From assembly GCA_963767925.1 (NCBI GenBank), contig CAVYGB010000008.1, positions 2,848,001-2,912,000 of the forward strand: a stretch of 64,000 nt of DNA, given 5' to 3'. Position 1 is the stretch's first letter. Every line of letters begins with the position of its first letter. The notes beneath the pieces were generated by a model. The model had not been told where the DNA came from. It saw only the letters and a list, made by a program, of their open reading frames with translations, and ran no database searches. The stretch comes from an uncultured delta proteobacterium (GTDB lineage: Bacteria; Myxococcota_A; Polyangia; Fen-1088). A program made the position numbers and the translations under genes. Positions 21,051 through 43,654 of this stretch are shown here, piece by piece.

Positions 21051-22439
21051 TCAGGGGGTGGGGTCGTTGTGGAAGGGGAGGATCCAGGCGGGGGGGAGCT
21101 GGTCGGCGGCCAGGTCGATCTCGGGATCGACGAGGGGGCGGAGGGGGCGGCCGTTGAGGCTGACCAGGACTTCGGCGTGGACGGCCACGCCGGGGCCTTC
21201 CTTCCGGGCCAGGGCGCGGGCGAAGTCCCGGATCAGGTCGGGCTGGGTGGACATCATCTTGATCTGCAGGGGGGTCAGGTGGTCGCGCAGGCGCACCGGG
21301 CGGCGCTTGCCCGTGCGCCGATCCCGCAGGGTGAAGTCGGCTACCCCCGTCTTCTCCATCAACATGACGTGCCAGGAGAAGCGGTAACCCTGCTCGCTCC
21401 ACAACACGTGGCCGGGGTACAGGTGCTGGCGCAGCGGGAAGAGGGTCTGGAACAGGACGTAAACCAGCAGGGCCGCCGTCGCGAGCCGGCCGAGCGGCGG
21501 CGCCTGTGAGGCCGGGCGGGGCGATGGGGGCACGCGCGGCAGACGAAGCAGGCGAAGCAGGCGGCGGGGCCAGTCGGGCGAGAGGAACAGCAGCGAGCAG
21601 CCGATCATGAAGAAGGGGAACATGCCCAGGCGGAACAGGCGGACGGTCAGCAGGTGGAAGGCCACCGCGGCGATGAGGGCGAAGGGGCGCGAGCGGCGCC
21701 AGAGCAGCAGGAACGGCACGAAGGTGTCGAAGGCGGCGCCGGCCCAGCTCGCGAGGTGCGCGGTCTCGGGGCGCATGAGCAGGGGGCCGAGCAGGGGAAA
21801 GTCGCCGTTGGTGGGCAGCCAGATCCGCAGGGGCAAGGCCTGCAGCAGCCAGTCGCTGCGCCACTTCGCCACGCCGGCGAAGAAGTAGACGCACCCGACC
21901 TGGAAGCGGAGCAGCCCCAGGGTCCAGGCCGGGACGGTGGGCTCGACGCCTCCGCGGCGGAGGGCGTCGAGCGACCAGATGCGCGCGCTCGGCACCACCG
22001 CCAGCAGGGCGGTGAGCAGGGTGACGAGGTAATAGTGGTTGAGGTAGTGGGTCAGGTCGGAGAAGTGTGCGTAGCTGAACAGCAGGCAGAACAGGCCCGC
22101 CGCCGGTCGGGCAAACAGGCCAACCATGAGGCAGGTGGCCAGCAGGCTCAGCAGGCCGAACAGCAGGTACATCGCCGGGGGTGACAAGGGCGCCAGCCCG
22201 GACCACAAGGGGAAGAAGAAGGTCGGATCGACGAAGGCCTCGCGGATCATCCCCTTGGCGGCGTAGCGAATCACCGCCACCAGCAGCAGCGCCCCGAACA
22301 CGACGCGGAAGGCGGCCAGCCCGGCCGCGTCCACCGGCGCGGCCAGACGCCGCCGGAGGCGCAGGAGTCGGCCCGCTCCGGCTCGCGGAGGGTCAGTCCC
22401 CGTCGTTGTCGGAGAAGCCGATGCTGACGCCAAGGGCAT
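21051..22439 (-). CDS. HTTM domain protein, vitamin K-dependent gamma-carboxylase-like (copy 1); start uncertain
   Basis: LAAFRVVFG, YLNHYYL, QVGCVYFFAGVAK..SDWL, FH......F.LGMFP, GYRFSWHVMLMEK, QPDLI, SLNGR. Confidence 0.88.
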   Translation of the reverse strand: MPLASASASPTTTGTDPPRAGAGRLLRLRRRLAAPVDAAGLAAFRVVFGALLLVAVIRYAAKGMIREAFVDPTFFFPLWSGLAPLSPPAMYLLFGLLSLLATCLMVGLFARPAAGLFCLLFSYAHFSDLTHYLNHYYLVTLLTALLAVVPSARIWSLDALRRGGVEPTVPAWTLGLLRFQVGCVYFFAGVAKWRSDWLLQALPLRIWLPTNGDFPLLGPLLMRPETAHLASWAGAAFDTFVPFLLLWRRSRPFALIAAVAFHLLTVRLFRLGMFPFFMIGCSLLFLSPDWPRRLLRLLRLPRVPPSPRPASQAPPLGRLATAALLVYVLFQTLFPLRQHLYPGHVLWSEQGYRFSWHVMLMEKTGVADFTLRDRRTGKRRPVRLRDHLTPLQIKMMSTQPDLIRDFARALARKEGPGVAVHAEVLVSLNGRPLRPLVDPEIDLAADQLPPAWILPFHNDPTP

Positions 22440-23562
22440 TGAACACCCCGGTGGCCAGCGCGGCCTTCACCAGGCGGAGGGCAGCGATGGCCCGCACCAC
22501 CGGCTCCGACTCGGCGCCGGCGGTCCGCACCGGCCGGGGCACGGCCCCGACCAGCTCCCGCGCCGTGGCCAGCGTCCGGAGCATCTGGGTGTCGGCGTTG
22601 GCGTTCATGTCGCGCACGGCGTCCGCCACCGAGACCACCGCCACGACATCGGGCCGGGCCCGGGGCCGCCCGGTGTAGAGCGCCTCCAGGCCGGCGAGGT
22701 CCTCGAGAATGTCGGGCACCACCTGGTCGCTGCGCGTGGCGACGGGCAGGCCGACCTTGGTGGTCATCCCGCCGGTGGCCAGCCGGAGCACGTCGATGGT
22801 GCGGTCGGCGATGGCCAGCGATTTGTTGAGGAGGGCGTTGAGGGCGTCGCGCTCGAGCGCGAACTGGGTGCTGCCCCGCCCCGCCCGGGCCAGCTCCTGC
22901 CCGAACTGCGCCCGCCAGCCCTCGACCACCGCGCCGAGCTTGGCGTCGAGATCGCCGCCGAGGAGCCCGAGGTAGAGCGCCCGCCGCGGTCCCTGTGGCC
23001 CGGCGAAGGTCTGGGCGGTGGCCTCGGGGGTGGCGTCGGCCGGCTCGAACAGGAGGTATTCGATGGCCAGGAAGCCCCGCTGGTTGGCCCCCAGGCTGCG
23101 CACCGCCGTGGCGTCTAGCGGGGTGGCGGCGGCCAGCAGGCGCTCCAGCCGGGCGGCGTCGGTCGGCTCGTCGATGATCCCGCTGGTCACGCCGAGGTCG
23201 TCGGCGGGGCCGATGCCGTAGGCGTTGGTGCGGCGCCAGAGCGCGCGGGTGGCCCGCCAGGTTTCCCGGGCGGCGGCGATGTTCTCCGCGGTCGGCGCCC
23301 CCGCCGCGCTGGTCAGGGCGGCGGCCAGCTCGGCCGAGCCGGTCTTCAACGCCTCGTAGTCGGGCAGCGCCACCACCCGCACCAGCTCGGCCAGCACGAC
23401 CTGGCGATCGGGGCGGGCCGCGGGCGGCCCCTCGACGGCGGCGGCGTCCGGCGTCTGCGCGGGTGCGCCGTCCACCTCGGCCGGCGCGGGCGCCGGCTTG
23501 CGCTCGCAGGTGGCGAGCACCGGGAGCAACAGGAGCAGCAGACCGGTCCGCGTCGTCGACAT
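22393..23562 (-). CDS. Imelysin-like lipoprotein (non-His type)
   Basis: Signal plus lipobox-like LATC, AARETW, RGFLAIEYLLF, C-terminal GFSDNDGD. Confidence 0.82.
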   Translation of the reverse strand: MSTTRTGLLLLLLPVLATCERKPAPAPAEVDGAPAQTPDAAAVEGPPAARPDRQVVLAELVRVVALPDYEALKTGSAELAAALTSAAGAPTAENIAAARETWRATRALWRRTNAYGIGPADDLGVTSGIIDEPTDAARLERLLAAATPLDATAVRSLGANQRGFLAIEYLLFEPADATPEATAQTFAGPQGPRRALYLGLLGGDLDAKLGAVVEGWRAQFGQELARAGRGSTQFALERDALNALLNKSLAIADRTIDVLRLATGGMTTKVGLPVATRSDQVVPDILEDLAGLEALYTGRPRARPDVVAVVSVADAVRDMNANADTQMLRTLATARELVGAVPRPVRTAGAESEPVVRAIAALRLVKAALATGVFNALGVSIGFSDNDGD

Positions 23563-25059
23563 CACAGGGAATCCAGGAACATGATGAGCGCCTCCCGATC
23601 GGGCTTGGGCAACTGCTTGTAGGCCTCGCGGCTGCGTTCGGCCTCGCCGCCGTGCCACAAGATAGCCTCGGAGAAGCCCCGCGCGCGACCATCGTGCAGC
23701 AGATAGCGGTGGCGGTTGACCGCCTGCACGAGGCCGAGCCCCCACAGGGGTGGGGTCCGCCACTCGCTGCCCGAGGCCTGGAAGTCGGGTCGCCCGTCGG
23801 CGAGGTCGGGGCCCAGGTCGTGCAGGAGAAGATCGCTGAACGGCCGGATGGTCTGGCCAGACAGCTCGGGCAGCTCGGGGTGGGTCCCGGTCTTCAGCAC
23901 CGGCGTGTGGCAACCCGTGCATCCCAGCTCGGCGAAGACGACCTTGCCCCGCCGGACCTCGGGCACCATGGTGCGGCGACGGCCCGGGACGGCCAGCGTC
24001 GACACGTACGACACGACCGACTTCAGGAAGGACTCGCTGAGCTGCGGCGCCTCGTTGCCCGGCTCCGCGGTGGGGGCGGCCTGGCAGGCCTCCTGGGTGG
24101 AGGTGCAGCTCTCGGCCGGGAACATCGCGGAGGTGATGCCGATGTCGCCGTTGAATGCCCCCGCGGTCTGCTGGCGCAGGTTGGGCTGGTTGGCCTTCCA
24201 GCCGAAACGGCCGAGGGCCGGGCGCTGGTTCTCCTGGTCCCACACCAGGTTGGGGCGCCCCGAGATGCCGTCGCCGTCGAGGTCGTCGGGATCGGCGCGG
24301 GCGAGCAGGGTCTCCTCGGGCACCGCCTCGAGCAAGCCCAGCCCGACCAGGTGCGCGCCCACCCGCGGAGAGATCATCACGTCGGGGGCCAGCGGGCCGT
24401 AGCCCAGGCTCTCCACGGTGTAGCTCGGTTTGCGCAGCGAATACGGCTCGCCGTCGGCGAAGCTGCCCGGCACCTCCTGGTAGGCCACCCGGCCCCGGCC
24501 TTCGCCCGGAACGCCGGGGATCGAGGCCCCCTGGAGCTGCCCGCCATAGCTCGGCTCGGGCAGCGGGGCCGCCGTGCGAGTCGGCGCCAGGCACCGACAG
24601 GCGGAGCAACATCGAGCTGAAGTTCTCGTCCGGCCGATCGGGGGGCCGGCCCCGGCCGTCCCGGATGTGACAGGCCGAGCAGTTCGTCGCGTTGAAGACC
24701 GGCCCCAGCCCGTCCATGCCGGTCACCGAGGCAGGGGCGATGATCCAGCCCCGGTTGAAGATGGCGTTGCCCACGAAGAACTCGTCTTCGTGCTCGGGCG
24801 TGAGGGTCGGGACGGCCTGGGAGAAGGCCTTGCTGCCCGTGTCGAACACGGTCGCCGCACCGCCAGAGAAGGCCTCGCCGGGATCCTCCAGCCAGGAGTC
24901 CGAGCCGGTGTCGGCCGGCTGGGCGTCCGCCTCCAGCGCGTCGGGCGGGTCGGACACTGCGGCATCGAGGAGCGGCGGGTCGCCCGGGGGCGACCCGCCT
25001 TCTCCACACGCCGACGCCGTGAGGACCAGACCTGCGACGAGCGTGGCGGCGATGCGCAT
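23562..25059 (-). CDS. Di-heme oxidoreductase (DUF1111) lipoprotein; one frameshift near 24566
   Basis: GLGPVFNATNCSACHIRDGRG, GLGLLEAV, GRFGWKA, CTGCH, SDLLLHDLG, WRTPPLWGLG, LHDGRAR, HGGE; removing one G from GGGG 24565-24568 joins the halves. Confidence 0.9.
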
Positions 25060-25081: not shown

Positions 25082-26470
<1,389 letters not shown>

Positions 26471-26571
26471 TGGCAAGAACCTCATCTGGATATTGGTGGC
26501 ACGGGGCGCTGGGGCCTCTGACCTCCGACCTGTGTTGATGTACGTGGATCTACGTAGAGCCACGCCCGGAT

Positions 26572-26600
26572 CGAATATGACGTTCATTTTCAGTTGTCAA
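26572..26600 (-). promoter_or_regulatory. -35 hexamer plus Fur-type box for operon A
   Basis: Minus strand TTGACA-AC-TGAAAATGAACGTCATATTCG. Confidence 0.82.
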
Positions 26601-26986: not shown

Positions 26987-27757
26987 CTATTTGGCGGCGG
27001 GCGCGGCGGCGGCGCGGGCGGGCGGCTTCGGGGCGGGCGGTGAAGGGAGGCCGCTCGGCCTGACGAAAGACAGCGTGGTGGTGTAGCTCGCCAGGTCGTA
27101 CTTCTCCTCGGGCTTGCCGGCGGCGGCGGGGCGCTGGCCCGGGGTGTTGTCGACGTGGCGGATGGCCACGAGGTACGACCCCTTCCAGGGCAGGTTGAAG
27201 CTGATCTTGCCCTGCTCGTCGGTGTGGCCCTCCTGGCCCCAGCCCGAGGCGGCCTTGATGCCGATCTCGGCCTTCGGCAGCGGCTGGCCCCGGAAGACCA
27301 CCTGGAACTCGCCCACCTTGCCGGTGGGCACCACGTCGAGGGTGAGCTTGGGCTGCTGGGCGGTGAAGTCGGTGATGTAGCGGGCGGCCGGGCTCCAGAA
27401 GGTGCGGGTGGTCTTCTCGCCGGCCTTGCGCTCGATCACCGGGTAGTTCGGCTCCTGCACCACCAGCGTCTCGCCCTTCTTGATGCGGGCCTCGCTGGAG
27501 AAGCTGCTGGCGGTCTTCGCCAGGGTGACCGGCTGCTCGCCCTTGCCGGTGAGGTGGGTGCCGGTCGGGCCGGGGAACTTGTCGAGGTAGCCGGGCGACG
27601 ACTCGCGCACGTTCTCGGCGAACTCGCCGAAGTACAGCTTGGCGCCGGCCTTGTCCTGCTCGAGCCAGATCTGGTGGGCCGGCGCGGCGGCGGGTCCGAG
27701 CAGGACGAGGGTGGCGGCCAGCAGGCCGAGAGGTCGGGTGAGGTGGGTCTTGTTCAT
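26987..27757 (-). CDS. DUF4198-like exported protein
   Basis: Signal peptide then HQIWLE, YFGEF, LDVVP, VFRGQPLP, TDEQG; GGAGG RBS. Confidence 0.78.
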   Translation of the reverse strand: MNKTHLTRPLGLLAATLVLLGPAAAPAHQIWLEQDKAGAKLYFGEFAENVRESSPGYLDKFPGPTGTHLTGKGEQPVTLAKTASSFSSEARIKKGETLVVQEPNYPVIERKAGEKTTRTFWSPAARYITDFTAQQPKLTLDVVPTGKVGEFQVVFRGQPLPKAEIGIKAASGWGQEGHTDEQGKISFNLPWKGSYLVAIRHVDNTPGQRPAAAGKPEEKYDLASYTTTLSFVRPSGLPSPPAPKPPARAAAAPAAK

Positions 27758-27807
27758 GGTGGTCTTGCCTCCTGGGTCGAGTCTCGGCGCCGGTCGGGCG
27801 GAGCCCG

Positions 27808-28866: not shown

Positions 28867-28879
28867 CGTCTGCCTCGAT

Positions 28880-28900
28880 TGATTATGATAGTCAGTTTCA
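28880..28900 (-). promoter_or_regulatory. Fur-type box
   Basis: Minus strand TGAAACTGACTATCATAATCA. Confidence 0.78.
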
Positions 28901-29200
28901 TCAGACACACAAGGGCTATCGCGCGGTCGAGCTGTTCGATCCGCCGGCGCCTGCGCCGGCGCCGCCCCCCCCCATCCCCCGCCGCCGGAGCCGCCCGCCC
29001 CGCCGCCTCCCGCGCCCGGATGAAGGCGGCGCTGGCCCCTGCCCCGGCCCAGGCCGCCGAGGTGGTGGCGAAGGAGCCAGCCGCCGAGGAGCCGCTCGAT
29101 CTGACCTCGTCCTCTCCCCACGCCGCAGACGTCCGCGGGGAGAGGGCAACCGGGCAGCGGGGTTGCCTGCTCACCGCTTGCCGATCGCCAGCGCTCGATC

Positions 29201-29578
29201 TCAGGCAGGCGGCGCGACGATGGCGGCGCCCTCGGTCCGGGGGCGCTCGAAGTAGCCGGGGAAGGCCAGCGCCAGCCCCTGGGCGATGGCCCCGAACCAG
29301 AGCGCGGTCAGCAGACCGGTCATCAACACCTTGCCCCAGCGGCTCGCGTCGGTCACCCGGTTCCGCCACAGCCACCGGTGGATCAGCCGGGCCACGAGGA
29401 AGATGGTGCCCAGCCAGAGCAGCAGCCCCGCCACCGCCACCACGGGAAACACCGCCCGCGCGTAGCGCAGGCAGAGGGTCGCCGCGATCCAGGTGAAGGC
29501 CAGCACGAACAGCGGCGATCCCAGGGTCGCGACGACCTCGGCGAGCCGGCGTGCAGTACCGGCACGAGCAGGTTCCAT
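29201..29578 (-). CDS. Small membrane protein (about 3 TM)
   Basis: Three hydrophobic segments, host-like codon usage. Confidence 0.6.
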   Translation of the reverse strand: MEPARAGTARRLAEVVATLGSPLFVLAFTWIAATLCLRYARAVFPVVAVAGLLLWLGTIFLVARLIHRWLWRNRVTDASRWGKVLMTGLLTALWFGAIAQGLALAFPGYFERPRTEGAAIVAPPA

Positions 29579-35104: not shown

Positions 35105-37456
35105 TCAGAGCCGGACGCGGGCGGTCATCAGCACCACCCGTCCCTCGGCGGGCACCGCCTGGCTGCCCGAAGATTGCTCGTAGTAGAGCGCGTCGGTCAG
35201 GTTGGACAGGTTGACCTGCAGGTCGAGGTGGGGGAAGGCGTAGCTCACGAAGGCGTCGAGCCGCACGAAGTCCGGCACCTTGTTGAGCGGCAGCATCTCG
35301 GAGGCCGGGTTGTTGACCACCGTCTCGGCCTGGTAGGCCGCACCGGCGCCCACCACCAGGTTCGACAGCATCCCGAAGGTGCTCCAGAACGACAGGCTGT
35401 GGGCGGGGGTGTTGGGCAGGCGCTGGCCGACCAGGTACGGGCTTGTGTGCCGGCGGATGCGGGACTGCAGATAGGTGTAAGAGCCGATGAGCTTGAGCCG
35501 CTCGATCGGGCTGCCGGTGGCCCCGACGTTGACCCCCTGCACGCGCTGCCGTCCGAACAGGATCTGGGGCGGGCCGTTCATCGGGTCGAGGCCCGGCACC
35601 CGGGCGTTGGTCTTGGCGATGCGGAAGACCGAGCCGCCCAGCCCGAGCCGTTCACCCAGCAGGTCGGCCTTGGCCCCCAGCTCGTAGATCACGTTCTTCT
35701 CGGGCTCGAGGCTGACCGTGGCGTCCGACAGGGTCCCCGCCTCGGCCGAGGGGTTGGTCGAGGTCCCCACCATGGCGTACAGGCTGGTCTTCTCCAGGGG
35801 GTGGCCCACCACGCCGCCCCGCCAGTTGACGAGCAGGTCGCGGTTCTCGAGCTCGCTCTCGCCCATCGGGTTGATGAGCGAATAGCTGGTCACGAACGAC
35901 TCCAGCCGGACCGAGCCCAGCACCTCGAGGAACTTCGTGATCTGGACCTGGTCGGAGGCGTAGATCGCCCCCGCGAGCTGGGTGCCCCGGCTCCAGCTGC
36001 TGAACAGCCGCTCGAGCGAGGAGGTGTCGGGGGCGTGGTCCGGGTTGCGCAGATCGGCCGAGAGGTTGGTGGCGGTGCCCATCGCCCCCATCACCGAGAG
36101 GTTGTAGCGCTGCTGCGTCCGCTTCTCCCAGGACAGCTCCATCCCCAGGTTGGCCACGTGTTTGAGGAAGGCGGTGACCCCCTCGAGCCGCAGGTCGGTC
36201 TGGTTGACCACCCCTTCGTGGTCGGTCTCGCTCTCGAAGCGCTGGCGCCCGATGCTGGTCGGGTTGTCGAGCGGGGCGAGGTTGCGGGGCGCCGTCGGCA
36301 GGGCGAAGCGGTCGACCCGCCCCCAGCGGAGGGCGCTGGTGAGCTGGGCGTTCTTGCTGAAGACGTGCTGGACCCGGGCGCTGGCGACGTGGGCGTCGAC
36401 CTCCTCCTTGTCCGACCCGGCGACGCCGTAAAAGGCGCTGCGGGAGACCCCCATCGACGGGATCGACGACACGGGCGAGCCGTTGTGAAAGGGCTGGCCG
36501 TAGTCGGGGGTGGAGCGCTCGCGCTGGTAGAGGTAGTCCACCCCCAGCGTGGTGCGGCCGAACTCCAGTCTGAAGGAAGGGGCCAGGCCGGCCCGGTTCC
36601 GCTCGATACTGTCCCGGCCCTGCACGCCGCCGGCCTGCCCCATGGCGTTGACCCGCACCTGCACCTTGTCGAACAGGACGTGGTTGACGTCGGCCTCGAT
36701 GCGCCCCTGGGGCGCGGTCCCGGCGCTCAGGCTCACGTCGGCGAAGGTGCCCTTGCGGGGCGTCTTGGTCACCAGGTTGACCGCGCCGCCGGTCGAGCCG
36801 CGCCCGAACAGCACCGAGGAGGGGCCGAAGAACACCTCCACGCCCTCGAGGTTGAAGGTGTCGCGCGTGAACCAGCCGAGGTCGCGGCTGCCGTCGCGGA
36901 ACATGTCGGTCTGCCCGGAGAAGCCGCGCAGGATGAAGGTGTCACCCTGGCGCCCGCCTTCGCCGGCGCTGATGGTGATGCCCGAGACGTTGCGGAGGGC
37001 GTCGCGGACCGTGGTGGCCCGCTGCTCCTCGAGCACCTTCTCCGGCACCACCGTGATCTGCTGGGGCGTGTCCCGCAGGGGAGTGGCCAGGCGTGGCACC
37101 CGGCTCTGCTCGGTGCGGTAGCCCTCGGCCTCGCCCTCCACCTGCACGGTGGGGAGCACCAGGGGGGGCGCCTGATCGGACGCGGTGGTGGGGCCTTCGC
37201 CGGGCGGCGCGGGGGTCGGCGCGGCGGCCGAGGCCAGAGACGAGGGGGCCGCCGGGCTGCTGGCTACCGGCTGCTCGGGCGGGGCGGCGGCGGGTGGATC
37301 CTGGGCGGCCCGGGCGACGGCGCTGCCGCCGGCGAGGGCGGACACCAGGCTCACGGCCCGGCCGAGCGGACCGAACGATTCGAGCAATGTCCCGCGGAGG
37401 CCGCTCTGGGCTCGAATACCGCTACGGTTCCGGATCGGCGTCTTCTTCGCTGCCAT
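35105..37456 (-). CDS. TonB-dependent siderophore receptor (Fiu/PiuA-like)
   Basis: DTPQQITVV, DALRNVSGIT..AGEGG, IRGF-like LRGF, GRGSTGGAVN, NLTD.LYY. Confidence 0.92.
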   Translation of the reverse strand: MAAKKTPIRNRSGIRAQSGLRGTLLESFGPLGRAVSLVSALAGGSAVARAAQDPPAAAPPEQPVASSPAAPSSLASAAAPTPAPPGEGPTTASDQAPPLVLPTVQVEGEAEGYRTEQSRVPRLATPLRDTPQQITVVPEKVLEEQRATTVRDALRNVSGITISAGEGGRQGDTFILRGFSGQTDMFRDGSRDLGWFTRDTFNLEGVEVFFGPSSVLFGRGSTGGAVNLVTKTPRKGTFADVSLSAGTAPQGRIEADVNHVLFDKVQVRVNAMGQAGGVQGRDSIERNRAGLAPSFRLEFGRTTLGVDYLYQRERSTPDYGQPFHNGSPVSSIPSMGVSRSAFYGVAGSDKEEVDAHVASARVQHVFSKNAQLTSALRWGRVDRFALPTAPRNLAPLDNPTSIGRQRFESETDHEGVVNQTDLRLEGVTAFLKHVANLGMELSWEKRTQQRYNLSVMGAMGTATNLSADLRNPDHAPDTSSLERLFSSWSRGTQLAGAIYASDQVQITKFLEVLGSVRLESFVTSYSLINPMGESELENRDLLVNWRGGVVGHPLEKTSLYAMVGTSTNPSAEAGTLSDATVSLEPEKNVIYELGAKADLLGERLGLGGSVFRIAKTNARVPGLDPMNGPPQILFGRQRVQGVNVGATGSPIERLKLIGSYTYLQSRIRRHTSPYLVGQRLPNTPAHSLSFWSTFGMLSNLVVGAGAAYQAETVVNNPASEMLPLNKVPDFVRLDAFVSYAFPHLDLQVNLSNLTDALYYEQSSGSQAVPAEGRVVLMTARVRL

Positions 37457-37486
37457 GGGTCGGTTCTCCTGGGTGGCGGGTAAACC

Positions 37487-37573
37487 TGAAATTGATTTTC
37501 AGGTTCATCACAGCCTTCAATACACGCCGGCCCGGAGGCCTGTCAATAGATCCGAAATTGATTATTGTTATCA
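37487..37573 (-). promoter_or_regulatory. Two Fur-type boxes flanking a TTGACA
   Basis: Plus-strand TGAAATTGATTTTCAGGTTCA (37487-37507) and CGAAATTGATTATTGTTATCA (37553-37573); TGTCAA at 37541-37546. Confidence 0.82.
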
Positions 37574-37629
37574 ACATCGTGGCGGATCGGCCCTCCGACC
37601 CGCCGCCGCCTCCCGCCGGGAGAGCCCGC

Positions 37630-39819
37630 TCAGAACGAGGACTTCACCCCCGCCTGCAGCCAGCGGGGGGCGATCGGGCGGGCGCCGAAGGGACGGCGGG
37701 AGGCGATGTCCTGGGCGTTGGTCAGGTTGCGCAGGTGCAGGTAGGCCTGGGTGCTCCCGTAGACCTGGGCCCGCACGCCGGCCTCGATGACCAGGGCCGC
37801 ATCGGTGGAGAAGTCCGGGTCGAAGGCCCCCTGCCCGGCCTCCTCGCGCATCTGGCTGGTGTAGCTGATGCCGGCGGAGAAGCCGACGCGGCCGGTCTCG
37901 ACGGCGGCGGACACGGCACCCTGGTGCTGCGGGACGTAGGGCAGCTGGTCGCCGGCCTGCACGCTGCCGAGCTGCGGGTCCTCGGAGACGAACGACGAGG
38001 CCAGGCGCGTGCGGGTGAAGCCGTAAGCGAGCGTCACCGGGACGTTGATGCCGGGCCGGGGCTGCCAGGCGGTCTGTCCGAACAGCTCGACGCCCCAGAT
38101 CGTGGCTCGCCCCGCGTTGAACTGGCGATCGACGAGCTCCTCGGCGCAGCCGCTGGCCTGGGTGCAGACGCTGATCAGGTTGCGGTAGTCGTTGAAAAAG
38201 CCGATGGCCTCGGCCCGCAGGCGCCGGTTGCCGAAGCGGGCCCCCGCCTCGTAGTTCCAGCTCGTCTCGGGCCGGGCGCCGTCCACCAGCGAGGGGGCCG
38301 CCGGGGAGAACCCCCGGTAGGCGCCGGCCAGCAGGCCCACCGTGGGCGTCAGCTCGTAGAAAGCGCCCGCGCCCGGGATCAGGACGCCCTGGCGGGTCGA
38401 GTTGGCCGGCAGCTCCTGGCGGCGGTCGAGCAGCCGCATGCGGATCAGCTCGAAGCGCAGTCCGGGCGTCAGGGTGAGCTTGCGCCAGGTGACGGCGTCG
38501 ATCGCGTGCAGGGCCATGGCCGTGCTCGCGCCCCGGCCGTTGGCGGTGATGAGGGTGTCCCCCGGCCCCCGCACGAGGGTCCCGCCCTGGGCGAGGAAGG
38601 GATCCTCGCTGTGCCGCCGCTCGATGGAGTCGAAGTGCAGGCGCGCGCCGATCTCCACCCGCTGGGTTACCGCGCCGCCGAAGCGCAGCCGACCCACCGT
38701 GGCCAGCCCCTCCGAAACGAAGGTGCGGTGGTTGGGCCCGATCCAGATGGCCTCGTCGGGCTGGGCGTCGGGGGCCAGGGTCAACACCCCGTACAGCACC
38801 TGGTTGCGGGCGCTGGTCGGGTCGCGCAGCACGTCCCCGATGGCGGCCGAACCCAGGCGGCTGACCTTGCGCCAGGTGCGGTCGAAGTCGTGGCGGTAGG
38901 CCACCGTCTCGAGGCTGCGGCCGCTGCCGAAGTCGAGCACGTGGCGCAGGGTCCCCTGGGTGCGCAGCCAGGTCATGCGGTCCAGCCGGCTGGCGCCGTA
39001 GCGCCGCCGGGGATTGGCCCGCAGGTCGGCGTCGGAGAGCCCCAGGTAGGTCTCGTTGGATTCCTCGGTCGAGAGCCCCAGCTTGAGCTCGAGGGCGTTG
39101 TGCATGGCCGCCCCCGGCACCGGGACCCAGCGCCCCTTGACCATCACCTCGTTGCGGGCAAAGCCCGTGTCGCCGCCCCCGTCGAGCTCCTTGAACCCGT
39201 CGCTGCGCAGGTGCACCCCCTCGACCAGGACCCCGAAGTGGCGGTTGCTCCAGCCCAGGTGGCCGTGGGCCTTGCCGTAGCCGTATTGCCCGGCGCCCAG
39301 GTCGATGGCCCCCGAGAGGCGCTCCGGGATCCGCCGCGTCACCAGCTCCACCGCGCCGCCGACGGTCTGGGGCCCGAACATGACCGCCCCCGGGCCCTTG
39401 ATCACCCGCACCGAATCCATGCGGGTCATCAGCGGGAAGTAGTAAGCCGCCGGCGCCGAATAGGGCGCCGGCCCGAACAGGACGCCGTCCTCGAGCAGCG
39501 TCACCTTCTTGCTCCGGTCGGGATTGCCCCCCCGGATCCCGATGTTGGGCCGCAGCCCCACCCCGTCCTCGCCGCGGGAGTAGACCCCCGGCACCTGCCT
39601 GAGCACCTGCTCGCTGTTGTCGTGGTCGAACCGCTCGAGCTCCTCGCTCTTGACCACGTGGGCCGACCCGGCGGTCTGCTTCTCCCGGGTGCCGACAACG
39701 GTGAGCTCCTCGATCCGGGCGGGCGGCTCGTCGGCCTGGGCCCGGGCCAGCGAGGGATGAAACACGGCCGCCACGACGGCGGCCACCAGCGATTTTTCGA
39801 TCAAGGTCCTGGACGACAC
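37630..39819 (-). CDS. TonB-dependent receptor (FecA-like)
   Basis: EDGVGLRPNIGIRG, LLEDGV...PAPYSAPAAYYFP, IKGP, LPYVP, RPFGARP, terminal F. Confidence 0.92.
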   Translation of the reverse strand: MSSRTLIEKSLVAAVVAAVFHPSLARAQADEPPARIEELTVVGTREKQTAGSAHVVKSEELERFDHDNSEQVLRQVPGVYSRGEDGVGLRPNIGIRGGNPDRSKKVTLLEDGVLFGPAPYSAPAAYYFPLMTRMDSVRVIKGPGAVMFGPQTVGGAVELVTRRIPERLSGAIDLGAGQYGYGKAHGHLGWSNRHFGVLVEGVHLRSDGFKELDGGGDTGFARNEVMVKGRWVPVPGAAMHNALELKLGLSTEESNETYLGLSDADLRANPRRRYGASRLDRMTWLRTQGTLRHVLDFGSGRSLETVAYRHDFDRTWRKVSRLGSAAIGDVLRDPTSARNQVLYGVLTLAPDAQPDEAIWIGPNHRTFVSEGLATVGRLRFGGAVTQRVEIGARLHFDSIERRHSEDPFLAQGGTLVRGPGDTLITANGRGASTAMALHAIDAVTWRKLTLTPGLRFELIRMRLLDRRQELPANSTRQGVLIPGAGAFYELTPTVGLLAGAYRGFSPAAPSLVDGARPETSWNYEAGARFGNRRLRAEAIGFFNDYRNLISVCTQASGCAEELVDRQFNAGRATIWGVELFGQTAWQPRPGINVPVTLAYGFTRTRLASSFVSEDPQLGSVQAGDQLPYVPQHQGAVSAAVETGRVGFSAGISYTSQMREEAGQGAFDPDFSTDAALVIEAGVRAQVYGSTQAYLHLRNLTNAQDIASRRPFGARPIAPRWLQAGVKSSF

Positions 39820-39850: not shown

Positions 39851-41239
39851 TCATTGCACGGCGACGAGCCGGCGGGGACGGTGGGAGGGCGCGCCGAGGA
39901 TCCAGGGCTTGGCCGAGAGGCCCTCCCCCACGCGCCGCAAGTCCACCCGGGGATCGATGAGCAGCTCGGCGCGCCGCCCGTTGAGGGCCACGTGGGCCTC
40001 CGCCCGCACCTCCACCCGGCCGTGACCCTGGCGGTCGTAGTCCGCCCCGATCCGCTGCGCGAGCTGCCAGATCAGATCGGGCTGGGTGGCCATGTCCCGC
40101 TCCTGGTAGGCGCGCAGGTACTGGCCGGGGCTCACCTCCCAGACCCGCCCGCTGGCGGGCGCCCGCACGTGGTAGGTCACGCTGGCGTTCTTCTCGCGCA
40201 CCATCACCCGCCAGGAGAAGCGCATCCCCTGCTCGTGCCACAGGACGTTGCCCCCGTAGGCCAGGTAGCGAAAGGGCAGGACCACCTGCACGGCGGCGAG
40301 GACCGCCAGCCCGGCCAGCGCCACCCGGGGACCGGGAAACATCGCGGCGGGCGCGGCCGGCGCCACGGCGGGGGCCGCGGGTGCCAGCAACCCGAGCCGG
40401 GCCAGCAGGCGGCGGGGCCAGTCCGGCGCGAAGAACACGGTCGCCGCCACGATCATGATGAAGGGGAACATTCCGATCGGGAAGAACAGCGCCGTCAGGC
40501 CGTGGAACACCACCACCACCGCGAAGGCCACCACCCGGGTGCACCGCCAGGCCAGGAAGATCGCGATCGTGCTGTCGAACAGGAAGCCCCCCCAGCTCGC
40601 CAGGTGGGGGGCCAGAGGGTGGGCGAGCAGCGGTCCGATGACCGGCAGGTCGGTCAGCGAGGTGAGCCAGAGCCCGAGCGGCTGCGCCTCGATCAGCCAG
40701 TCCCGCTGCAGCTTGGCCAGCCCCGCGCAGGTGTAGACCAGCGCCACCTGCAGGCGCAGGGCCTGGATCGCCAGGGCGGGCACCGTGTCCCGGGCGATCC
40801 CCGGCCGCAGCCGGGCGTCGAGGGAGAAGGTGGCGCTGGCCGGCAGGAAGGTGAGCAGCAGCGCCAGCAGGCTGACCAGGTAGTAGTGGTTGAGGTAGAG
40901 GGTGACGTCGATGAGCTGCAGGTAGGTGAAGAGGACGAAGTAGAGCGCGATGGCCACCCGGTAAAACAGGCCCACCGTGATCAGCAGCGCCAGCAGGGCC
41001 AGCAGGGCGAAGTGCAAGTACATCCCCCAGGCCGGCCAGGCCTTCACCCAGGTGAACCCCCAGTACTTGAAGTGGAAGGTGGGGGCGACGAAGAAGGTTT
41101 CGATCCAGCCGTACCAGAAGAAGCGCAGGGTCGAGATCAGCGCCAGCAGGCCGAAGCAGACGCGAAAGGCCGCCAGGCCGGCGGCGTCGACCGGCGCCCG
41201 GAGGGCGGCTGCGCGGCTGTCGGCGCGGGCGGCGGGCAT
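39851..41239 (-). CDS. HTTM domain protein, vitamin K-dependent gamma-carboxylase-like (copy 2)
   Basis: LAAFRVCFG, FHFKYWGF.WV, YLNHYYL, VYTCAGLAKLQRDWL, FPIGMFP, GMRFSWRVMVREK, QPDLI, LNGR. Confidence 0.9.
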   Translation of the reverse strand: MPAARADSRAAALRAPVDAAGLAAFRVCFGLLALISTLRFFWYGWIETFFVAPTFHFKYWGFTWVKAWPAWGMYLHFALLALLALLITVGLFYRVAIALYFVLFTYLQLIDVTLYLNHYYLVSLLALLLTFLPASATFSLDARLRPGIARDTVPALAIQALRLQVALVYTCAGLAKLQRDWLIEAQPLGLWLTSLTDLPVIGPLLAHPLAPHLASWGGFLFDSTIAIFLAWRCTRVVAFAVVVVFHGLTALFFPIGMFPFIMIVAATVFFAPDWPRRLLARLGLLAPAAPAVAPAAPAAMFPGPRVALAGLAVLAAVQVVLPFRYLAYGGNVLWHEQGMRFSWRVMVREKNASVTYHVRAPASGRVWEVSPGQYLRAYQERDMATQPDLIWQLAQRIGADYDRQGHGRVEVRAEAHVALNGRRAELLIDPRVDLRRVGEGLSAKPWILGAPSHRPRRLVAVQ

Positions 41240-42474
41240 CAGTCCTGATCGCTCTGCACGCCCTCGGGGAGCTCGAGGTTGAGGACGCTGACGAACTCGG
41301 TCTTCATGAGGGTCACGAGCTGCCGCAGCTCCTCGTAGACCGCCATCACCGCCGGCCGGTTGCTCACCAGGGCGTCCTTGAAGTCCCCCCCGGGGATGGC
41401 GGCCAGCGCGGCCCGGAGGGGCGCCAGGCGCTCGCGCATGCGGGTGGCGAGATCGCCCGCCCCCGAGGCCGAGAGCAGGTCGTCGAAGCCGAGGTCCCCG
41501 CCCGAGGGACAGCCGAAGGCCAGCTTCTCGAAGCCGTCGACGTTGCGCGCGAGGTGATCCTTGGAGCGCAGGGCGAAGCGGGACTCGAGCTGATCGAGGC
41601 AGGGCGGCGTCGCGCACTCGCGCAGGCCGAGGGGGCGCCCCAGCTTGACGTCTTTGCCCGGGTTCTCGATGTAAAACAGGGCGTGGCTCATGGCATTGAG
41701 CGCCTGCTGGGTCGAGGTGAACACCATGCTGCCCGCGCCGGCGCTCTTTACCTCGGCGAGGAAGTTGCGCCTGGCCGGGTCCCAGGCGTCGACCAGATCG
41801 CGACCCCGCTTTGCGATGTCGGCGGCCACCACCGCGGCGTAGGCCCGCTTGCGCAGCGCCAGGTCGTCGGCGGTGAGGGCCGCCCAGGCCCCGGTCGTGT
41901 TGAGGGTGGCGGAGGGCAGGCAGTGGTTGGCGCTGCCCTCGTAAAACAGGAGGTATTCCAGGGCCCCCAGCCCGCGCACGTTGACCAGGCTGCGGGTGGC
42001 GAAGTCGCCCTCCTTGAACCGCTGGCTCACGATCTCCTGTTCGACGAAACAGGGCGCGACGAAGGGCCAGGCGTACATGTTGTCGCGGATGTCCTCGGCG
42101 CCCGGTGAGGTGGTGCGGGCCGCCAGGGGACCGTACTGGAACATCTCCGCCTCCTCCCAGGCGGCCATCGCCGCCACCCAGGCCGCGCGGGCCGCCGTCC
42201 AGCGCTCGGCCGCTCCGTCGGCGGCCAGCATGGCGGTGGCCTCGACGAGCCCGTCGGCCGCCGGCAAGAAGGCCCGATAGACCTCGAGGGTGCAGGTGCC
42301 CAGCCCGGACAGCACCGCGCTGCGGGTCATGCCGGGCGAGGTGCCGCCGTCGCCGCTCTCGGCGTCGACCGACGCGTCGGCGGGCCCCGCCTCGCTGCCG
42401 CCCCCGCAGTTTCCAGCCAGGCCGGCCCCGGCCGTGATGGCAAAACAGACGAGCAGAGAACCGAGTCTTGGCAT
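41239..42474 (-). CDS. Imelysin-like lipoprotein (non-His type)
   Basis: Signal plus Cys, AARAAW, YAWP, VRGLGALEYLLF, KLGRPLG, ESRFA, C-terminal QSDQD. Confidence 0.85.
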   Translation of the reverse strand: MPRLGSLLVCFAITAGAGLAGNCGGGSEAGPADASVDAESGDGGTSPGMTRSAVLSGLGTCTLEVYRAFLPAADGLVEATAMLAADGAAERWTAARAAWVAAMAAWEEAEMFQYGPLAARTTSPGAEDIRDNMYAWPFVAPCFVEQEIVSQRFKEGDFATRSLVNVRGLGALEYLLFYEGSANHCLPSATLNTTGAWAALTADDLALRKRAYAAVVAADIAKRGRDLVDAWDPARRNFLAEVKSAGAGSMVFTSTQQALNAMSHALFYIENPGKDVKLGRPLGLRECATPPCLDQLESRFALRSKDHLARNVDGFEKLAFGCPSGGDLGFDDLLSASGAGDLATRMRERLAPLRAALAAIPGGDFKDALVSNRPAVMAVYEELRQLVTLMKTEFVSVLNLELPEGVQSDQD

Positions 42475-42487
42475 CGCGGAGCCTCCC

Positions 42488-43654
42488 CTAAAAAGCGATC
42501 TTGAACGCATCCACCTCGGCGGCGGTCCAGCCGTAGACCGCCTGGACGCGGGCGATCACCTCGTCCAGCCGGGACACCTCGTTCGCGGTGTCGAGGGCGT
42601 ACCGGTACAGCGTGACGGGCCCCGCGGGCGGGATCCCGAGCACCGTGAGAAGCTCGTCGATCTGAACGTCGGTGATGGTCCGGTTCGCCCCCGGCATCAT
42701 CCGGAAGCCGTAGGCGAAGCCGAGCCCCTCGCCGAGGCTGTGCAGGGCCCCCGCCACGTTGGCCTGCCCGAACCGGGTGCGGGCGTCGTTGGCGTAATAG
42801 AGGGTCGTCGCCAGCAGCGCCCGCTCCCAGTCGGCGCGGATGGCGCCCAGGGCCTCCTGCAGCTCGGCCGCGCAGCCGGCTCCCGCCCTGGCCGCCGCGC
42901 GGGCCCGGATCAGGTTGCCCTTGATGCGCGGGTAGATGCCGGGGGTGGCCGCCCGGGGGTCGCTGCGGCGGCGGGCGTAGACCGCCGACCAGGTGTCGGC
43001 GCTGCCCGCCCCGGCGTCCCCCGTGCCGAAGCTGGGGTGGCCGCCGTAGAGGGCGAGGATGCGATCGACGGTCGCCGCCGTCACCGTCCCGCCCATCAGG
43101 CTCACGGCCCGGTTGTAGAACGACGCCACGAACATGCCCTTGTCGATGGCCTGGCGGATGTCGAGGCCCTCGGGCGAGAAGATGTCCACGCCCAGCTTGC
43201 CGCCGGTGGCCGGCGGGGGATCGGCCGGGGCCCAGGCGTTGCCCGCCGAGGCCTCGAACAGCGCGAGCCACTCGTCGACCTTGCCGGCGAAATATGGGGT
43301 CGTGATCGAGCGCAGCGAGGGCGGGCCCTGGTCGAAGCGGGCGCGCAGCTCGGCGACTGTCGGCTTGAGGGTCGTGTCGTTGCCGGCGTTGCGCATCGGC
43401 ATCATGAACGACTCGTGGGCCGCGCGCAGGCCGAGCTCGACGATGGCGTTGCTCTCGTAGTCGGCCCCGTCGTAGCGGTCCGGATCAGCGGGCGCGCAGG
43501 CGCTGACCGGTCCCTCGGAGCCCACCCCGGCGTCCTCGCGAACCGCGCCGGCGTCTTCGCGAACCGCGGGGGGAGCGCCCGGGCCCGCCTCGTCGCAGGC
43601 CCACGAAACAGGGGCGGCCAGGGCAAGGGCCAGGATCGCCAGGTACTGCCTCAT
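42488..43654 (-). CDS. DUF4856-like lipoprotein
   Basis: SWAC lipobox-like; GLDIRQAIDKG....FY and HSLGEGLGF resemble DUF4856; context imelysin-HTTM-receptor. Confidence 0.65.
   Translation of the reverse strand: MRQYLAILALALAAPVSWACDEAGPGAPPAVREDAGAVREDAGVGSEGPVSACAPADPDRYDGADYESNAIVELGLRAAHESFMMPMRNAGNDTTLKPTVAELRARFDQGPPSLRSITTPYFAGKVDEWLALFEASAGNAWAPADPPPATGGKLGVDIFSPEGLDIRQAIDKGMFVASFYNRAVSLMGGTVTAATVDRILALYGGHPSFGTGDAGAGSADTWSAVYARRRSDPRAATPGIYPRIKGNLIRARAAARAGAGCAAELQEALGAIRADWERALLATTLYYANDARTRFGQANVAGALHSLGEGLGFAYGFRMMPGANRTITDVQIDELLTVLGIPPAGPVTLYRYALDTANEVSRLDEVIARVQAVYGWTAAEVDAFKIAF

Follow-up and report, generated by a model that had tools for sequence, protein, structure and literature searches.

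A vitamin-K-dependent-carboxylase-family membrane enzyme paired with Asp-tailed imelysin lipoproteins in bacterial iron operons

The window, a stretch of 64,000 nucleotides from an uncultured bacterium of the Myxococcota_A lineage, contains an iron island, 26 kb long and marked by Fur-box-like sites, in which two operons each link a gene for a vitamin-K-carboxylase-like membrane enzyme (HTTM) to one for an imelysin lipoprotein. According to Pfam, the island also carries TonB, a pair of fur genes and two receptors, besides PepSY_TM and PiuC-like genes, and all genes located below lie on the minus strand. The Fur-family regulators occupy 20368..20859 (PF01475, E 1.2e-34; Fur-box-like site at 20888-20906) and 18901..19599 (6.6e-31; site at 19653-19677). 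Across the window, 21 positions match the Fur consensus at 12 or more of 19 bases, as against 1-6 in 20 shuffles. Unstranded Fur-box-like sites stand at both operon heads, at 26573..26591 (13/19; imelysin A has its likely signal-peptide start about 90 nt downstream) and at 43704..43728 (two overlapping registers, 13/19 against GATAATGATAATCATTATC, with a DUF4856-like gene directly downstream). Together with the two adjacent fur genes, these sites support the Fur-type control proposed by an earlier, sequence-only reading of this DNA.

Operon 1 opens with imelysin A (25082..26587; Peptidase_M75, E 6.7e-68), a canonical GxHxxE protein (GYHAIE) that has no Asp tail and ends in EDPSVPL. It is followed by a di-haem oxidoreductase gene (DHOR/DUF1111; 23562..25059), located between two imelysins and frameshifted near 24557-24566, with PF06537 matches in two frames and a change of frame at a CCCC run in tblastn with a relative. 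Next come imelysin B (22393..23562; Peptidase_M75/imelysin, 4.1e-27), a His-less (IPPA-type) lipoprotein whose tail codons (22396..22410) spell D-N-D-G-D-COOH, the consensus tail of HTTM-linked imelysins, and HTTM1 (21051..22439; HTTM PF05090, 2.6e-73; VKGC_lumenal_dom PF22777, 3.2e-40). Operon 2 is composed of a DUF4856-like lipoprotein gene (42488..43702; a weak Pfam match, E 0.0056, under the curated cut-off), imelysin C (41239..42510, probable start 42474; Peptidase_M75, 1.3e-31), also a His-less lipoprotein and ending S-D-Q-D-COOH (codons 41242..41253), HTTM2 (39851..41239; PF05090, 4e-76; PF22777, 1.2e-43) and, as the last gene, a TonB-dependent receptor (37630..39819; Plug and TonB_dep_Rec barrel domains). 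A TonB-family gene (43802..45094; TonB_C, 1.3e-11) lies upstream of this operon.

Pfam confirms at both loci the arrangement first described, an HTTM gene placed after a His-less imelysin lipoprotein. The Asp-rich tails (GFSDNDGD and VQSDQD) are read in both imelysins, GFLAIE and GLGALE stand where GxHxxE would have its His, and YLNHYYL, Y..AG.AK...DW and G.RFSW..M are found in both HTTMs. The gene overlap claimed for both pairs stands for HTTM2 and imelysin C, whose start and stop share a TGATG junction, but is doubtful for HTTM1: its start is uncertain, a 427-aa version (P0006) also being on record, and the 47 nt that it seems to share with imelysin B may therefore be no true overlap. The HTTMs are paralogues with 45% identity; imelysins B and C are only distantly related to each other (28% over 248 aa, E 0.001). 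The genome has three imelysins, all inside the window.

A scan of the genome collection with HTTM matched at least 600 stretches, and in at least 592 of them a relative is encoded. The 80 best, which were retained, come mostly from Bacteroidota; the rest include Myxococcota, Rhodothermales/Rhodothermaceae and Balneolaceae MAGs. Within this set (the best 80 of at least 592), 76 loci include upstream DNA, and Pfam places an imelysin gene directly upstream of HTTM in 68 of them; among the 8 exceptions, re-examination recovered 5 with a tailed imelysin immediately upstream and 2 with a tailed imelysin and an intervening receptor gene, while the remaining locus, L082, has no tailed imelysin within 8 kb upstream. 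In all, a tailed imelysin precedes HTTM in 75 of these 76 loci, and 74 end in DGD-COOH. Neighboring genes are also retained among the best 80 of at least 592, with DUF4856 at the position matching 42488..43702 in 59 of 74 loci and a Plug domain in the gene after HTTM in 59 of the 63 loci examined. As an unbiased control, all Pfam imelysins of 151 evenly drawn Bacteroidota genomes were collected, giving 36 in 34 genomes, 35 of which were fetched. HTTM is directly downstream of all 28 that end in DGD and of none of the 7 that do not; of these 7 untailed imelysins, L104b shares its cluster with an HTTM gene 3 kb downstream, and for the other 6 a di-haem DHOR gene comes next. The pairing is seen in two cassette types and in groups including Bacteroidota, Myxococcota, Rhodothermales/Rhodothermaceae, Balneolaceae and a Binatia MAG. 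It is conserved far outside this genome.

The tail itself is strongly conserved in the partner. Among the best 80 of at least 592 relatives, the DGD end is found in 67 of the 68 Pfam-detected upstream imelysins and in 7 recovered ones, and an alignment of 73 partner imelysins with a mean identity of 26% has as its only invariant columns the lipobox Cys, a single Gly, a single Trp, Asp -3 and Asp -1, with Gly at -2 in 71 of the 73. Relatives of imelysin C end in GDND, GDQD, GDAD or TDND. In the own genome, D-x-D C-termini occur in 7 of 11,627 high-GC3 open reading frames, and imelysin B, which the high-GC3 filter dropped, would be the eighth. Judged from these alignments, the Asp tail is a near-invariant C-terminal motif and not a chance acidic stretch.

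Like human GGCX, the HTTMs join HTTM and lumenal domains; HTTM1 aligns with GGCX at E 2e-41, its identity being about 30% across human residues 50-505. Equivalents of GGCX N159, H160, K218, W223, D263, H287, F299 and W399 are present in all 73 HTTMs compared (from the best 80 of at least 592), the equivalent of Y395 being Tyr in 60, Phe in 11 and Met in 2, and that of K217 being Ala in 64; the counterpart of human 374-418 is likewise present, with at most 3 gaps per column. The catalytic roles of N159, H160, K218, W223, D263, F299 and Y395 are given by the available parts of a cryo-EM study (PMC12647623), and the stretch 374-418 is called essential for carboxylation, and missing in epoxidase-only viral homologues, in those of PMC13486548. 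An AlphaFold2 model of HTTM1 (pLDDT 91.6, pTM 0.90) retrieves by Foldseek, at E <= 0.001, GGCX entries only (16; TM 0.82-0.83 normalised to the query). Hence the active-site likeness put forward earlier holds for the fold and for most of the catalytic residues named by cryo-EM, but mostly not for K217 and only in part for Y395. HTTM1 also differs from GGCX (758 aa) in its length of 462 aa, its end aligning at human 505 and leaving out the C-terminal portion of the lumenal region found in GGCX, and in its candidate substrate, which would be the C-terminal Asp tail of a folded lipoprotein rather than a propeptide-led Glu-rich domain. Moreover, the HTTM context is iron uptake, and a search of the own genome, at 83.8% completeness, turned up no VKOR (PF07884), so there is no visible route for quinone epoxide recycling.

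The Leptospira orthologue reportedly has epoxidase activity and no Glu-carboxylase activity. According to a preprint, the K217 equivalent is Ala in the Leptospira homologue too, and the absence of this Lys in Leptospira homologues is linked to a loss of substrate-activated epoxidation. On the other hand, the bacterial orthologue MloH of malonomycin biosynthesis is reported to carboxylate an aspartyl residue, giving a malonate-type group (Law et al. 2018, via citing passages). MloH, compared here by description only, acts on a small polyketide-peptide intermediate within an antibiotic cluster (Law et al. 2018, as cited by others), unlike the present pair, in which the partner is a ribosomal lipoprotein from an iron operon.

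When HTTM1 (residues 25-462) and imelysin B (50-389) were co-folded, the ipSAE was 0.75 (runs 0.74, 0.75 and 0.78), compared with 0.00 for the best of three controls; the runs share at least 79% of contacts, partner pLDDT is at least 86, and the predicted interface comprises 122-128 contacts. This ipSAE is the model's own confidence and not a measured interaction value. In a calibration of the tool, which is rough here given that own alignments were used, 116 of the 157 solved complexes attained this ipSAE mark, as did 2 of the 215 mismatched pairs. Imelysin B 374-388 is predicted to meet HTTM1 131, 133-135 and 270-274, including the equivalents of N159, H160 and F299, such that the modelled tail sits against HTTM1 N134/H135/F274. 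The partnership suggested by the sequence-only reading is favored by the model.

However, the Asp tail is not exclusive to HTTM. All seven myxobacterial relatives of imelysin C are D-x-D-tailed, and the enzyme beside or fused to them is HTTM in 4 and a membrane FA_hydroxylase (PF04116), joined to or following the imelysin, in 3. In a metagenome scan with the FA_hydroxylase enzyme, an imelysin was found in 34 of 76 loci, Asp-tailed in 33 of the 34, and HTTM in none of the 76; neither the window nor the own genome has a member of that FA_hydroxylase subfamily. These cassettes share with the HTTM operons the DUF4856/imelysin/receptor or imelysin/di-haem/imelysin frames with Asp-tailed imelysins, but their membrane enzyme, of the FA_hydroxylase/sterol-desaturase family, is a di-iron oxygenase. 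The kind of tail (DGD or D-x-D) tracks the cassette type, not the enzyme type. Asp tails beside FA_hydroxylase instead of HTTM imply that a di-iron oxygenase, an enzyme other than a carboxylase, can take over the role of HTTM.

Related cassettes are already on record. In Riemerella anatipestifer, the consecutive genes RAYM_09779-09794 encode, as in operon 2, a receptor, a protein labelled 'vitamin K-dependent gamma-carboxylase', an imelysin lipoprotein and a hypothetical protein, and the rows for this cassette in an RNA-seq table list it as Fur-regulated under iron restriction; 'imelysin' and 'gamma-carboxylase' occur once each in the main text of that paper (PMC5609570). The imelysin B family profile finds the solved Psychrobacter imelysin (PDB 3pf0; E 6.5e-27), whose own C-terminus reads TDGD. 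This Psychrobacter arcticus protein, P. aeruginosa PA4372 and V. cholerae VC1266 are IPPA-type imelysins, associated with Fur-regulated imelysin/DUF1111/imelysin operons whose gene order is that of imelysin, di-haem and imelysin in operon 1 (Xu et al. 2011, PMC3143127). As in IPPA, the partner imelysins have GxxxxE without His, with Pro in 48 of 73 (from the best 80 of at least 592), as at IPPA Pro194; the last six IPPA residues are disordered, and the available parts of that paper describe no HTTM partner for IPPA-type operons (PMC3143127). In the literature searched, no paper contains both HTTM and imelysin, and of two that mention imelysin together with 'vitamin K' one is the Riemerella study, in keeping with the earlier statement that no function had been described for the pairing.

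The best explanation is that each operon carries a single copy of a two-protein module that is widespread and under iron regulation and consists of an inner-membrane enzyme of the vitamin-K-dependent-carboxylase family (the HTTM domain and the first part of the lumenal domain) and a His-less (IPPA-type) imelysin lipoprotein with a conserved D-x-D-G-D or D-x-D C-terminal tail. The pairing, the conserved tail, catalytic residues and fold, and the predicted complex are computed results, and iron/Fur regulation comes from the Riemerella study; the carboxylation chemistry, the choice of quinone, the metal that is bound and a role in uptake are our inference. The helical body of the exported imelysin would dock on the periplasmic beta-domain of the enzyme, allowing its tail to reach the catalytic chamber. 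There, HTTM, drawing on menaquinol and O2, would generate a strong base that removes the C-beta proton of a tail Asp, and CO2 would be added to yield beta-carboxy-aspartate with its malonate-type side chain. The modified tail would then be a protein-borne hard-oxygen chelator, most likely of Fe(III); in operon 2 it would serve the adjoining TonB-dependent receptor and DUF4856 lipoprotein, and in operon 1 the imelysin/di-haem pair. We give menaquinol-dependent beta-carboxylation of the tail Asp residues into a metal chelator about an even chance. An exclusive carboxylase reading is weakened by the FA_hydroxylase-linked tails, by the VKOR not found and by the change of K217 to Ala. Another point against it is the likeness of D-x-D-G-D to calcium-binding loops, which function unmodified. 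The earlier interpretation is therefore partly supported.

Rather unlikely, in our estimate, is a menaquinol/O2-dependent oxygenase/epoxidase or quinol-linked redox partner that carboxylates no imelysin, the tail only docking on or switching on the enzyme or holding the metal ion that its redox chemistry releases. Such an enzyme would fit the loss of K217 shared with the Leptospira homologue (preprint, in part), the giant-virus homologues read as epoxidases coupled to sterol-desaturase-like enzymes in the available parts of PMC13486548, the FA_hydroxylase-family enzyme in the same slot of other genomes, and the VKOR not found at 83.8% completeness. It would not explain why the HTTMs, unlike viral epoxidase-only forms, have the 374-418 equivalent, nor why the substrate/CO2-pocket residues N159, H160 and F299, unexpected without a carboxylate substrate, are kept in 73 of 73 HTTMs (best 80 of at least 592); the complex model sets the tail at exactly these positions. 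It is improbable that oxidative tailoring, and not carboxylation as such, is essential, with HTTM and FA_hydroxylase both adding an equivalent extra metal ligand on the tail-Asp C-beta, beta-hydroxy-aspartate at least in the di-iron systems. Siderophores commonly bind Fe(III) through beta-hydroxy-aspartate, and this proposal would accommodate the 4:3 division of enzymes among the seven D-x-D-tailed myxobacterial relatives, the tail in 33 of 34 imelysin-containing FA_hydroxylase loci, and a tail kind that follows the cassette rather than the enzyme. To our knowledge, however, characterized FA_hydroxylase-family members act on lipids, and we know of no hydroxylase chemistry for HTTM enzymes. In addition, the His motifs of related desaturases are on the cytoplasmic side, as stated in the available parts of PMC13486548, and an in-frame FA_hydroxylase-imelysin open reading frame (L142) suggests a cytoplasmic C-terminus for the FA_hydroxylase.

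Quite improbable is a hand-over complex like EfeO/EfeU, in which the unmodified acidic tail binds iron and passes it, without tail chemistry, to HTTM or FA_hydroxylase as the missing inner-membrane acceptor. The HTTM/imelysin cassettes have no recognisable inner-membrane permease and the predicted docking is extensive, but HTTM retains the full complement of residues for catalysis, quinol and CO2 as well as the GGCX fold, neither of which, as far as we know, belongs to a transporter. The study that likened imelysin operons to EfeUOB without EfeU also states, with data not shown, that PIBO and IPPA, as presumably unmodified recombinant proteins, had no specific ferric-ion binding in thermofluor (PMC3143127, available parts). 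Shared ancestry of a gene block, leaving adjacency and tail functionally unlinked, is already unlikely and has in our view only a minimal chance: many loci are from related Bacteroidota, so their counts are not independent events, but the pairing spans two cassette types and several phyla or groups at a mean imelysin identity of 26%, the tail stays invariant while the rest of the imelysin drifts, and the modelled complex is well separated from its controls. On the carboxylation reading, the Asp tail is a concrete candidate substrate for bacterial vitamin-K-carboxylase-like enzymes.

Between approximately 18.9 and 45.1 kb of the window, whose G+C content is about 72%, every gene assigned by Pfam lies on the minus strand and all of them concern iron handling. 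Operon 1 comprises imelysin A (25082-26587, -), a di-haem oxidoreductase (DHOR; 23562-25059, -), imelysin B (22393-23562, -) and the carboxylase-like membrane protein HTTM1 (21051-22439, -), and operon 2 a weakly matching DUF4856-like protein (42488-43702, -), imelysin C (41239-42510, -), HTTM2 (39851-41239, -) and a TonB-dependent receptor (37630-39819, -). Genes for DUF4198 and DUF6607 proteins and a response regulator (26987-30929, -) lie between the two operons, and a separate unit (32462-37578, -) encodes a PepSY_TM protein, a PiuC-type 2OG-Fe hydroxylase and a second TonB-dependent receptor (35105-37456, -). The island is completed by a TonB protein gene (43802-45094, -) and two Fur-family regulator genes in tandem (18901-19599 and 20368-20859, -), the former with an extension of about 100 residues ahead of the Pfam match and hence only a tentative start. 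Re-reading of the window bears out the sequence-only reading in its coordinates, tails and HTTM motifs for both operons, as well as in the missing His of the GxHxxE motif, which reads GFLAIE in imelysin B and GLGALE in imelysin C. In the di-haem oxidoreductase gene the reading frame is switched at a CCCC homopolymer (24557-24566, -), where a relative reads G-G-P-L-P; the switch may be genuine or may stem from an assembly error in the homopolymer.

The two HTTM proteins are paralogues (45% identical), and imelysins B and C show little similarity (28% identity across 248 residues). All three imelysins of the genome lie in the window, as do its only two strong HTTM-plus-lumenal proteins; weaker HTTM paralogues occur elsewhere in the genome, and no D-x-D-ended proteins were found beside them. 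Among the 8,000 candidates scored, the closest named relatives of the window HTTMs come from Myxococcota, among them Polyangiaceae and Labilithrix.

The window contains 21 positions that agree in 12 or more of 19 bases with the classical Fur box, a consensus that may not be that of the host phylum, versus 1-6 in 20 shuffles. By the same consensus, both operon heads carry a site with 13 of 19 matches (26573-26591 for operon 1 and 43704-43728 for operon 2), and further sites precede the two fur genes (19653-19677 and 20888-20906), lie in the tandem-fur region (18797-18824), occur as a pair before the second TonB-dependent receptor (37488-37578), and are found elsewhere in the island (28875-28905, 30684-30929 and 31959-31977) and outside it (58606-58636). 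Two of them, at 28881-28899 and 30690-30708, reach 15 of 19 matches and seemingly fall within the longest open reading frames (ORFs), so the starts of those genes are probably further downstream. Outside the island, three adjoining AT-rich 20-mers (14-16 A/T of 20) were seen at 6067-6130.

Both membrane proteins match the HTTM domain PF05090 (247.2 bits for HTTM1 and 256.5 for HTTM2) and the lumenal domain of vitamin K carboxylases, PF22777 (138 and 149.1 bits), each against a cut-off of 27.7 bits, and HTTM1 aligns with the solved chains of the human enzyme, GGCX, over human residues 50-505 (E 2e-41). The roles of N159, H160, K218, W223, D263, F299 and Y395 in GGCX are described in the available text of a cryo-EM study (PMC12647623). 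In 73 aligned HTTM sequences from the best 80 of at least 592 loci, K192, W197 and D238 of HTTM1, which correspond to the catalytic base K218, W223 and D263, are kept throughout, and so are N134, H135 and F274, the counterparts of N159, H160 and F299 in the pocket for the substrate carboxylate and CO2. Y352, equivalent to Y395, is Tyr in 60 sequences, Phe in 11 and Met in 2, and the equivalents of H287 and W399, picked from the alignment and not from the cryo-EM study, are kept in 73 of 73. Lys217, which in GGCX links epoxidation to the binding of substrate, is the exception: of the 73 sequences, 64 have Ala here and none has Lys. HTTM1 residues 331-375, the counterpart of human 374-418, are present with at most three gaps per column in the 73 sequences; according to the available text of PMC13486548, this stretch is essential for carboxylation and absent in epoxidase-only homologues of giant viruses. 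HTTM1 (462 residues) differs from GGCX in that both the alignment and the protein end at the equivalent of human residue 505, and thus the C-terminal part of the lumenal region is absent. The AlphaFold2 model of HTTM1 (pLDDT 91.6, pTM 0.90) superposes on GGCX with TM 0.82-0.83 and an rmsd of 3.2-3.4 Å over about 457 columns, and a search of PDB structures with this model returned only 16 GGCX entries at E ≤ 0.001. No VKOR-type epoxide reductase (PF07884) was found in the genome, which is 83.8% complete.

Imelysins B and C belong to the PF09375 family (E 4.1e-27 and 1.3e-31), and the profile of their family matches the structures 3pf0, 3n8u, 4ecg and 7xrx. When 73 partner imelysins from the best 80 of at least 592 loci are aligned, mean identity is 26% and five columns are invariant, namely the lipobox Cys, one Gly of GxxxxE, one Trp, and the Asp residues at positions -3 and -1; position -2 is Gly in 71 of the 73, and Pro occupies the position of the GxHxxE His in 48 of 73. 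The lipoprotein signal is evident from the invariant Cys19 column, the lipobox of imelysin C (AGNC) being atypical. Among the same loci, 67 of 68 HTTM-adjacent imelysins terminate in D-G-D, mostly as [YF]-x-D-[NASG]-D-G-D, and seven further upstream imelysins, recovered on re-reading, end likewise. Imelysin B carries the consensus tail DNDGD and imelysin C the variant SDQD, and the tails of seven myxobacterial relatives of imelysin C read GDND, GDQD, GDAD, TDND and, once, GDNDV. Such ends are rare in the genome (7 of 11,627 high-GC3 ORFs, plus imelysin B, which the filter missed), and imelysin A, of the canonical GxHxxE form, ends in ISFEDPSVPL without a D-x-D tail. The canonical first imelysins of the clusters arranged as operon 1 have acidic ends of their own, such as …LEE, …DPEE, …PPEE, …TDPEETKI/L and similar (loci L022, L024, L038, L150, L154, L155, L163 and L187), or GTPE and NVTVE (L029 and L059), which differ from the D-x-D tail.

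Related loci were collected by a scan of one genome per species with an alignment of 19 HTTM relatives as query, in which at least 600 stretches matched and at least 592 encode a relative; a word-indexed search of a protein collection, scoring the 8,000 candidates that share most words, gave 1,733 relatives at E ≤ 1e-10. The best 80 loci of the genome scan, to which the following counts refer, are mostly from Bacteroidota, with others from Myxococcota, MAGs of Rhodothermales/Rhodothermaceae and Balneolaceae, Kapaibacterium, Binatia and others. The co-occurrence of HTTM genes with tailed imelysins, proposed from the one genome, holds widely: by Pfam, an imelysin stands immediately upstream of HTTM in 68 of the 76 loci with upstream DNA. 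Seven of the eight apparent exceptions were rejected on re-reading with dedicated profiles, five being a matter of ORF choice, with an imelysin directly upstream, and two having an intervening receptor gene. The remaining one, L082, has no imelysin within 8 kb of HTTM and is the sole such case among the 76. Of 74 loci, 59 encode DUF4856 and four the di-haem DHOR at the second position upstream; of 63 examined for the gene downstream of HTTM, 59 show the Plug domain of TonB receptors there, three a CarboxypepD_reg-like N-domain only and one (L056) neither. Because these neighbours recur across related loci, both arrangements of the window are standard types: type A, as in operon 2, runs DUF4856, imelysin, HTTM, receptor, and type B, as in operon 1, imelysin, DHOR, imelysin, HTTM. 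A public annotated example is a plasmid of Chondrinema litorale with type B and then a receptor, whose second imelysin ends in SDNDGD. The HTTM of a Paracoccus albus plasmid (L226, NZ_CP115776.1 13366-14757) is 35% identical to HTTM1 and lies beside a divergently transcribed DUF393 gene; lacking an imelysin and belonging to a different HTTM subfamily and context, it was rejected as a member of the pairing.

A control was built from the imelysin side: a Pfam search (E ≤ 1e-8) of 151 Bacteroidota genomes, drawn evenly, yielded 36 imelysins from 34 genomes, and 35 of these were examined together with their flanks. A DGD end is present in 28 of the 35, and HTTM lies directly downstream in all 28 and in none of the seven without that end, six of which are followed by a DHOR gene, the seventh, of canonical form, being the first imelysin in a type B cluster. 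Owing to the relatedness of the control genomes these counts do not represent independent events, yet the split is complete. The module is carried by 29 of the 151 sampled genomes.

Three of the seven relatives of imelysin C from myxobacteria have, in place of HTTM, a membrane protein of the FA_hydroxylase/sterol-desaturase family (PF04116), which follows the D-x-D-tailed imelysin or, in an in-frame fusion, precedes it, and PF22777 was not found in two of these three genomes. One ORF of 725 codons from a genome of the same class (L142:4998-7175, -) combines an FA_hydroxylase-family protein (profile E 1.5e-134) with a GDQD-tailed imelysin. A scan of metagenome contigs with an alignment of this enzyme matched 598 stretches and 565 relatives; among the best 80 of the 565, the enzyme is an ORF in 76 loci, an imelysin lies in the available flanks of 34, and 33 of these 34 have an Asp-tailed imelysin (ADGD, SDND, SDGD, GDAD, GDND, GDTD and others), with HTTM in none of the 76. 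This subfamily was found neither in the window nor elsewhere in its genome, and matches to the wider family in two of the 80 HTTM loci are weak (E ~1e-20) and non-adjacent and were taken as unrelated members. The His-less imelysin of Psychrobacter arcticus (IPPA, 3pf0) ends in GFNSTDGD; the last six residues are disordered according to the available text of its structure paper, which also leaves the imelysin substrate open (PMC3143127), and the disordered part is thus the conserved tail. Since the FA_hydroxylase-type cassettes and 3pf0 (TDGD) also carry it, the tail is a general property of His-less imelysins, which adjoin one of two unrelated membrane enzymes.

The complex of HTTM1 (residues 25-462) and imelysin B (50-389), each with its own 73-row alignment, was predicted with an ipSAE of 0.75 (runs 0.74, 0.75 and 0.78) versus 0.00 for the best of three controls, the score being the model's own confidence and no measurement. 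In the calibration, 116 of 157 solved complexes attain this value, as do 2 of 215 mismatched pairs, counts that are rough here given the custom alignments. At least 79% of contacts recur between runs, and the partner pLDDT is 86 or higher. In the model, the helical body of the imelysin rests on the periplasmic β-domain (HTTM residues 357-433), and the whole tail (374-388) touches HTTM residues 131, 133-135 and 270-274, including the equivalents of N159, H160 and F299; co-folding, proposed with the tail peptide and run with imelysin B 50-389, thus places the tail at the predicted active site. Given that GGCX-substrate complexes have been solved, the model may remember the enzyme channel; the imelysin, however, is unrelated to any Gla protein.

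The reading that we favour, while holding the chances to be about even, is that the HTTM enzyme would carboxylate the tail aspartates at Cβ with menaquinol and oxygen, and that the resulting malonate-type side chains would serve the uptake proteins encoded nearby by chelating Fe(III) or possibly Ca(II). Menaquinone is generally used by the phyla in which the HTTM form is common, which fits this proposal; against it counts the likeness of D-x-D-G-D to calcium-binding loops that need no modification. Carboxylation is favoured because the carboxylase residue set is complete and the 374-418 stretch retained, because the Asp positions are invariant and the tail is predicted to lie in the pocket, and because there is a precedent in MloH, the bacterial orthologue of malonomycin biosynthesis, which carboxylates an aspartyl group according to the available text. 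It is weakened by the replacement of HTTM with FA_hydroxylase elsewhere, and by the missing K217 together with the failure to find VKOR in a genome 83.8% complete; K217 loss has been linked, in the available part of a preprint, to altered behaviour of the Leptospira homologue.

Three alternatives are considered. HTTM may instead act in redox chemistry or as an epoxidase, the tail serving for docking or to hold a metal; the altered K217 position leaves room for this, and the stretch that epoxidase-only homologues lack is set against it. We consider it rather unlikely. The two unrelated partners of the tail could also point to an "oxidative tailoring" shared by both enzymes, the exact group differing between them, which appears improbable. 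Slightly less probable still is a hand-over of the EfeO/EfeU kind in which the tail undergoes no chemistry. Returning to carboxylation, its extension to a protein-borne chelator, in which a VKGC-type enzyme turns the C-terminal Asp of the imelysin into β-carboxy-aspartate and elsewhere a di-iron oxygenase adds a different ligand to the tail, is proposed tentatively, as somewhat less than an even prospect.

In the literature searched, which largely excludes subscription journals, no publication was found that treats HTTM and imelysin together. Imelysin and "vitamin K" co-occurred there only in a Riemerella study (PMC5609570), which has the cassette in a table as Fur-regulated under iron restriction and mentions "imelysin" and "gamma-carboxylase" once each in its main text, and in a Prevotella proteomics study. 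Searches of the same literature found only unrelated work on protein β-carboxy-aspartate and nothing on Leptospira with γ-carboxylase; the available texts on Leptospira describe an iron-induced operon of LruB imelysin, di-haem protein and imelysin and are silent on a carboxylase orthologue as a neighbour, and those on HTTM, iron and TonB-dependent uptake concern another HTTM partner, DUF5819. Carboxylation as such is known; what we rate as new is the candidate substrate type and the biological setting for vitamin-K-dependent carboxylation.

Two old questions, the role of bacterial vitamin K carboxylase orthologues and how imelysins act in iron uptake, are thereby made testable, as a precise candidate substrate is named, three to five residues at the C-terminus of one lipoprotein, together with a predicted mass shift and the candidate catalytic residues K192, N134, H135 and F274 of HTTM1. 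The module is also found in animal pathogens such as Riemerella. If true, the proposal would represent the first vitamin-K-dependent protein carboxylation outside animals and the first function for the large family of VKGC-like proteins in bacteria; it would also bring a new post-translational modification into bacterial metal acquisition, tie menaquinone chemistry to iron uptake, and supply the missing working principle of imelysin iron systems that lack EfeU.
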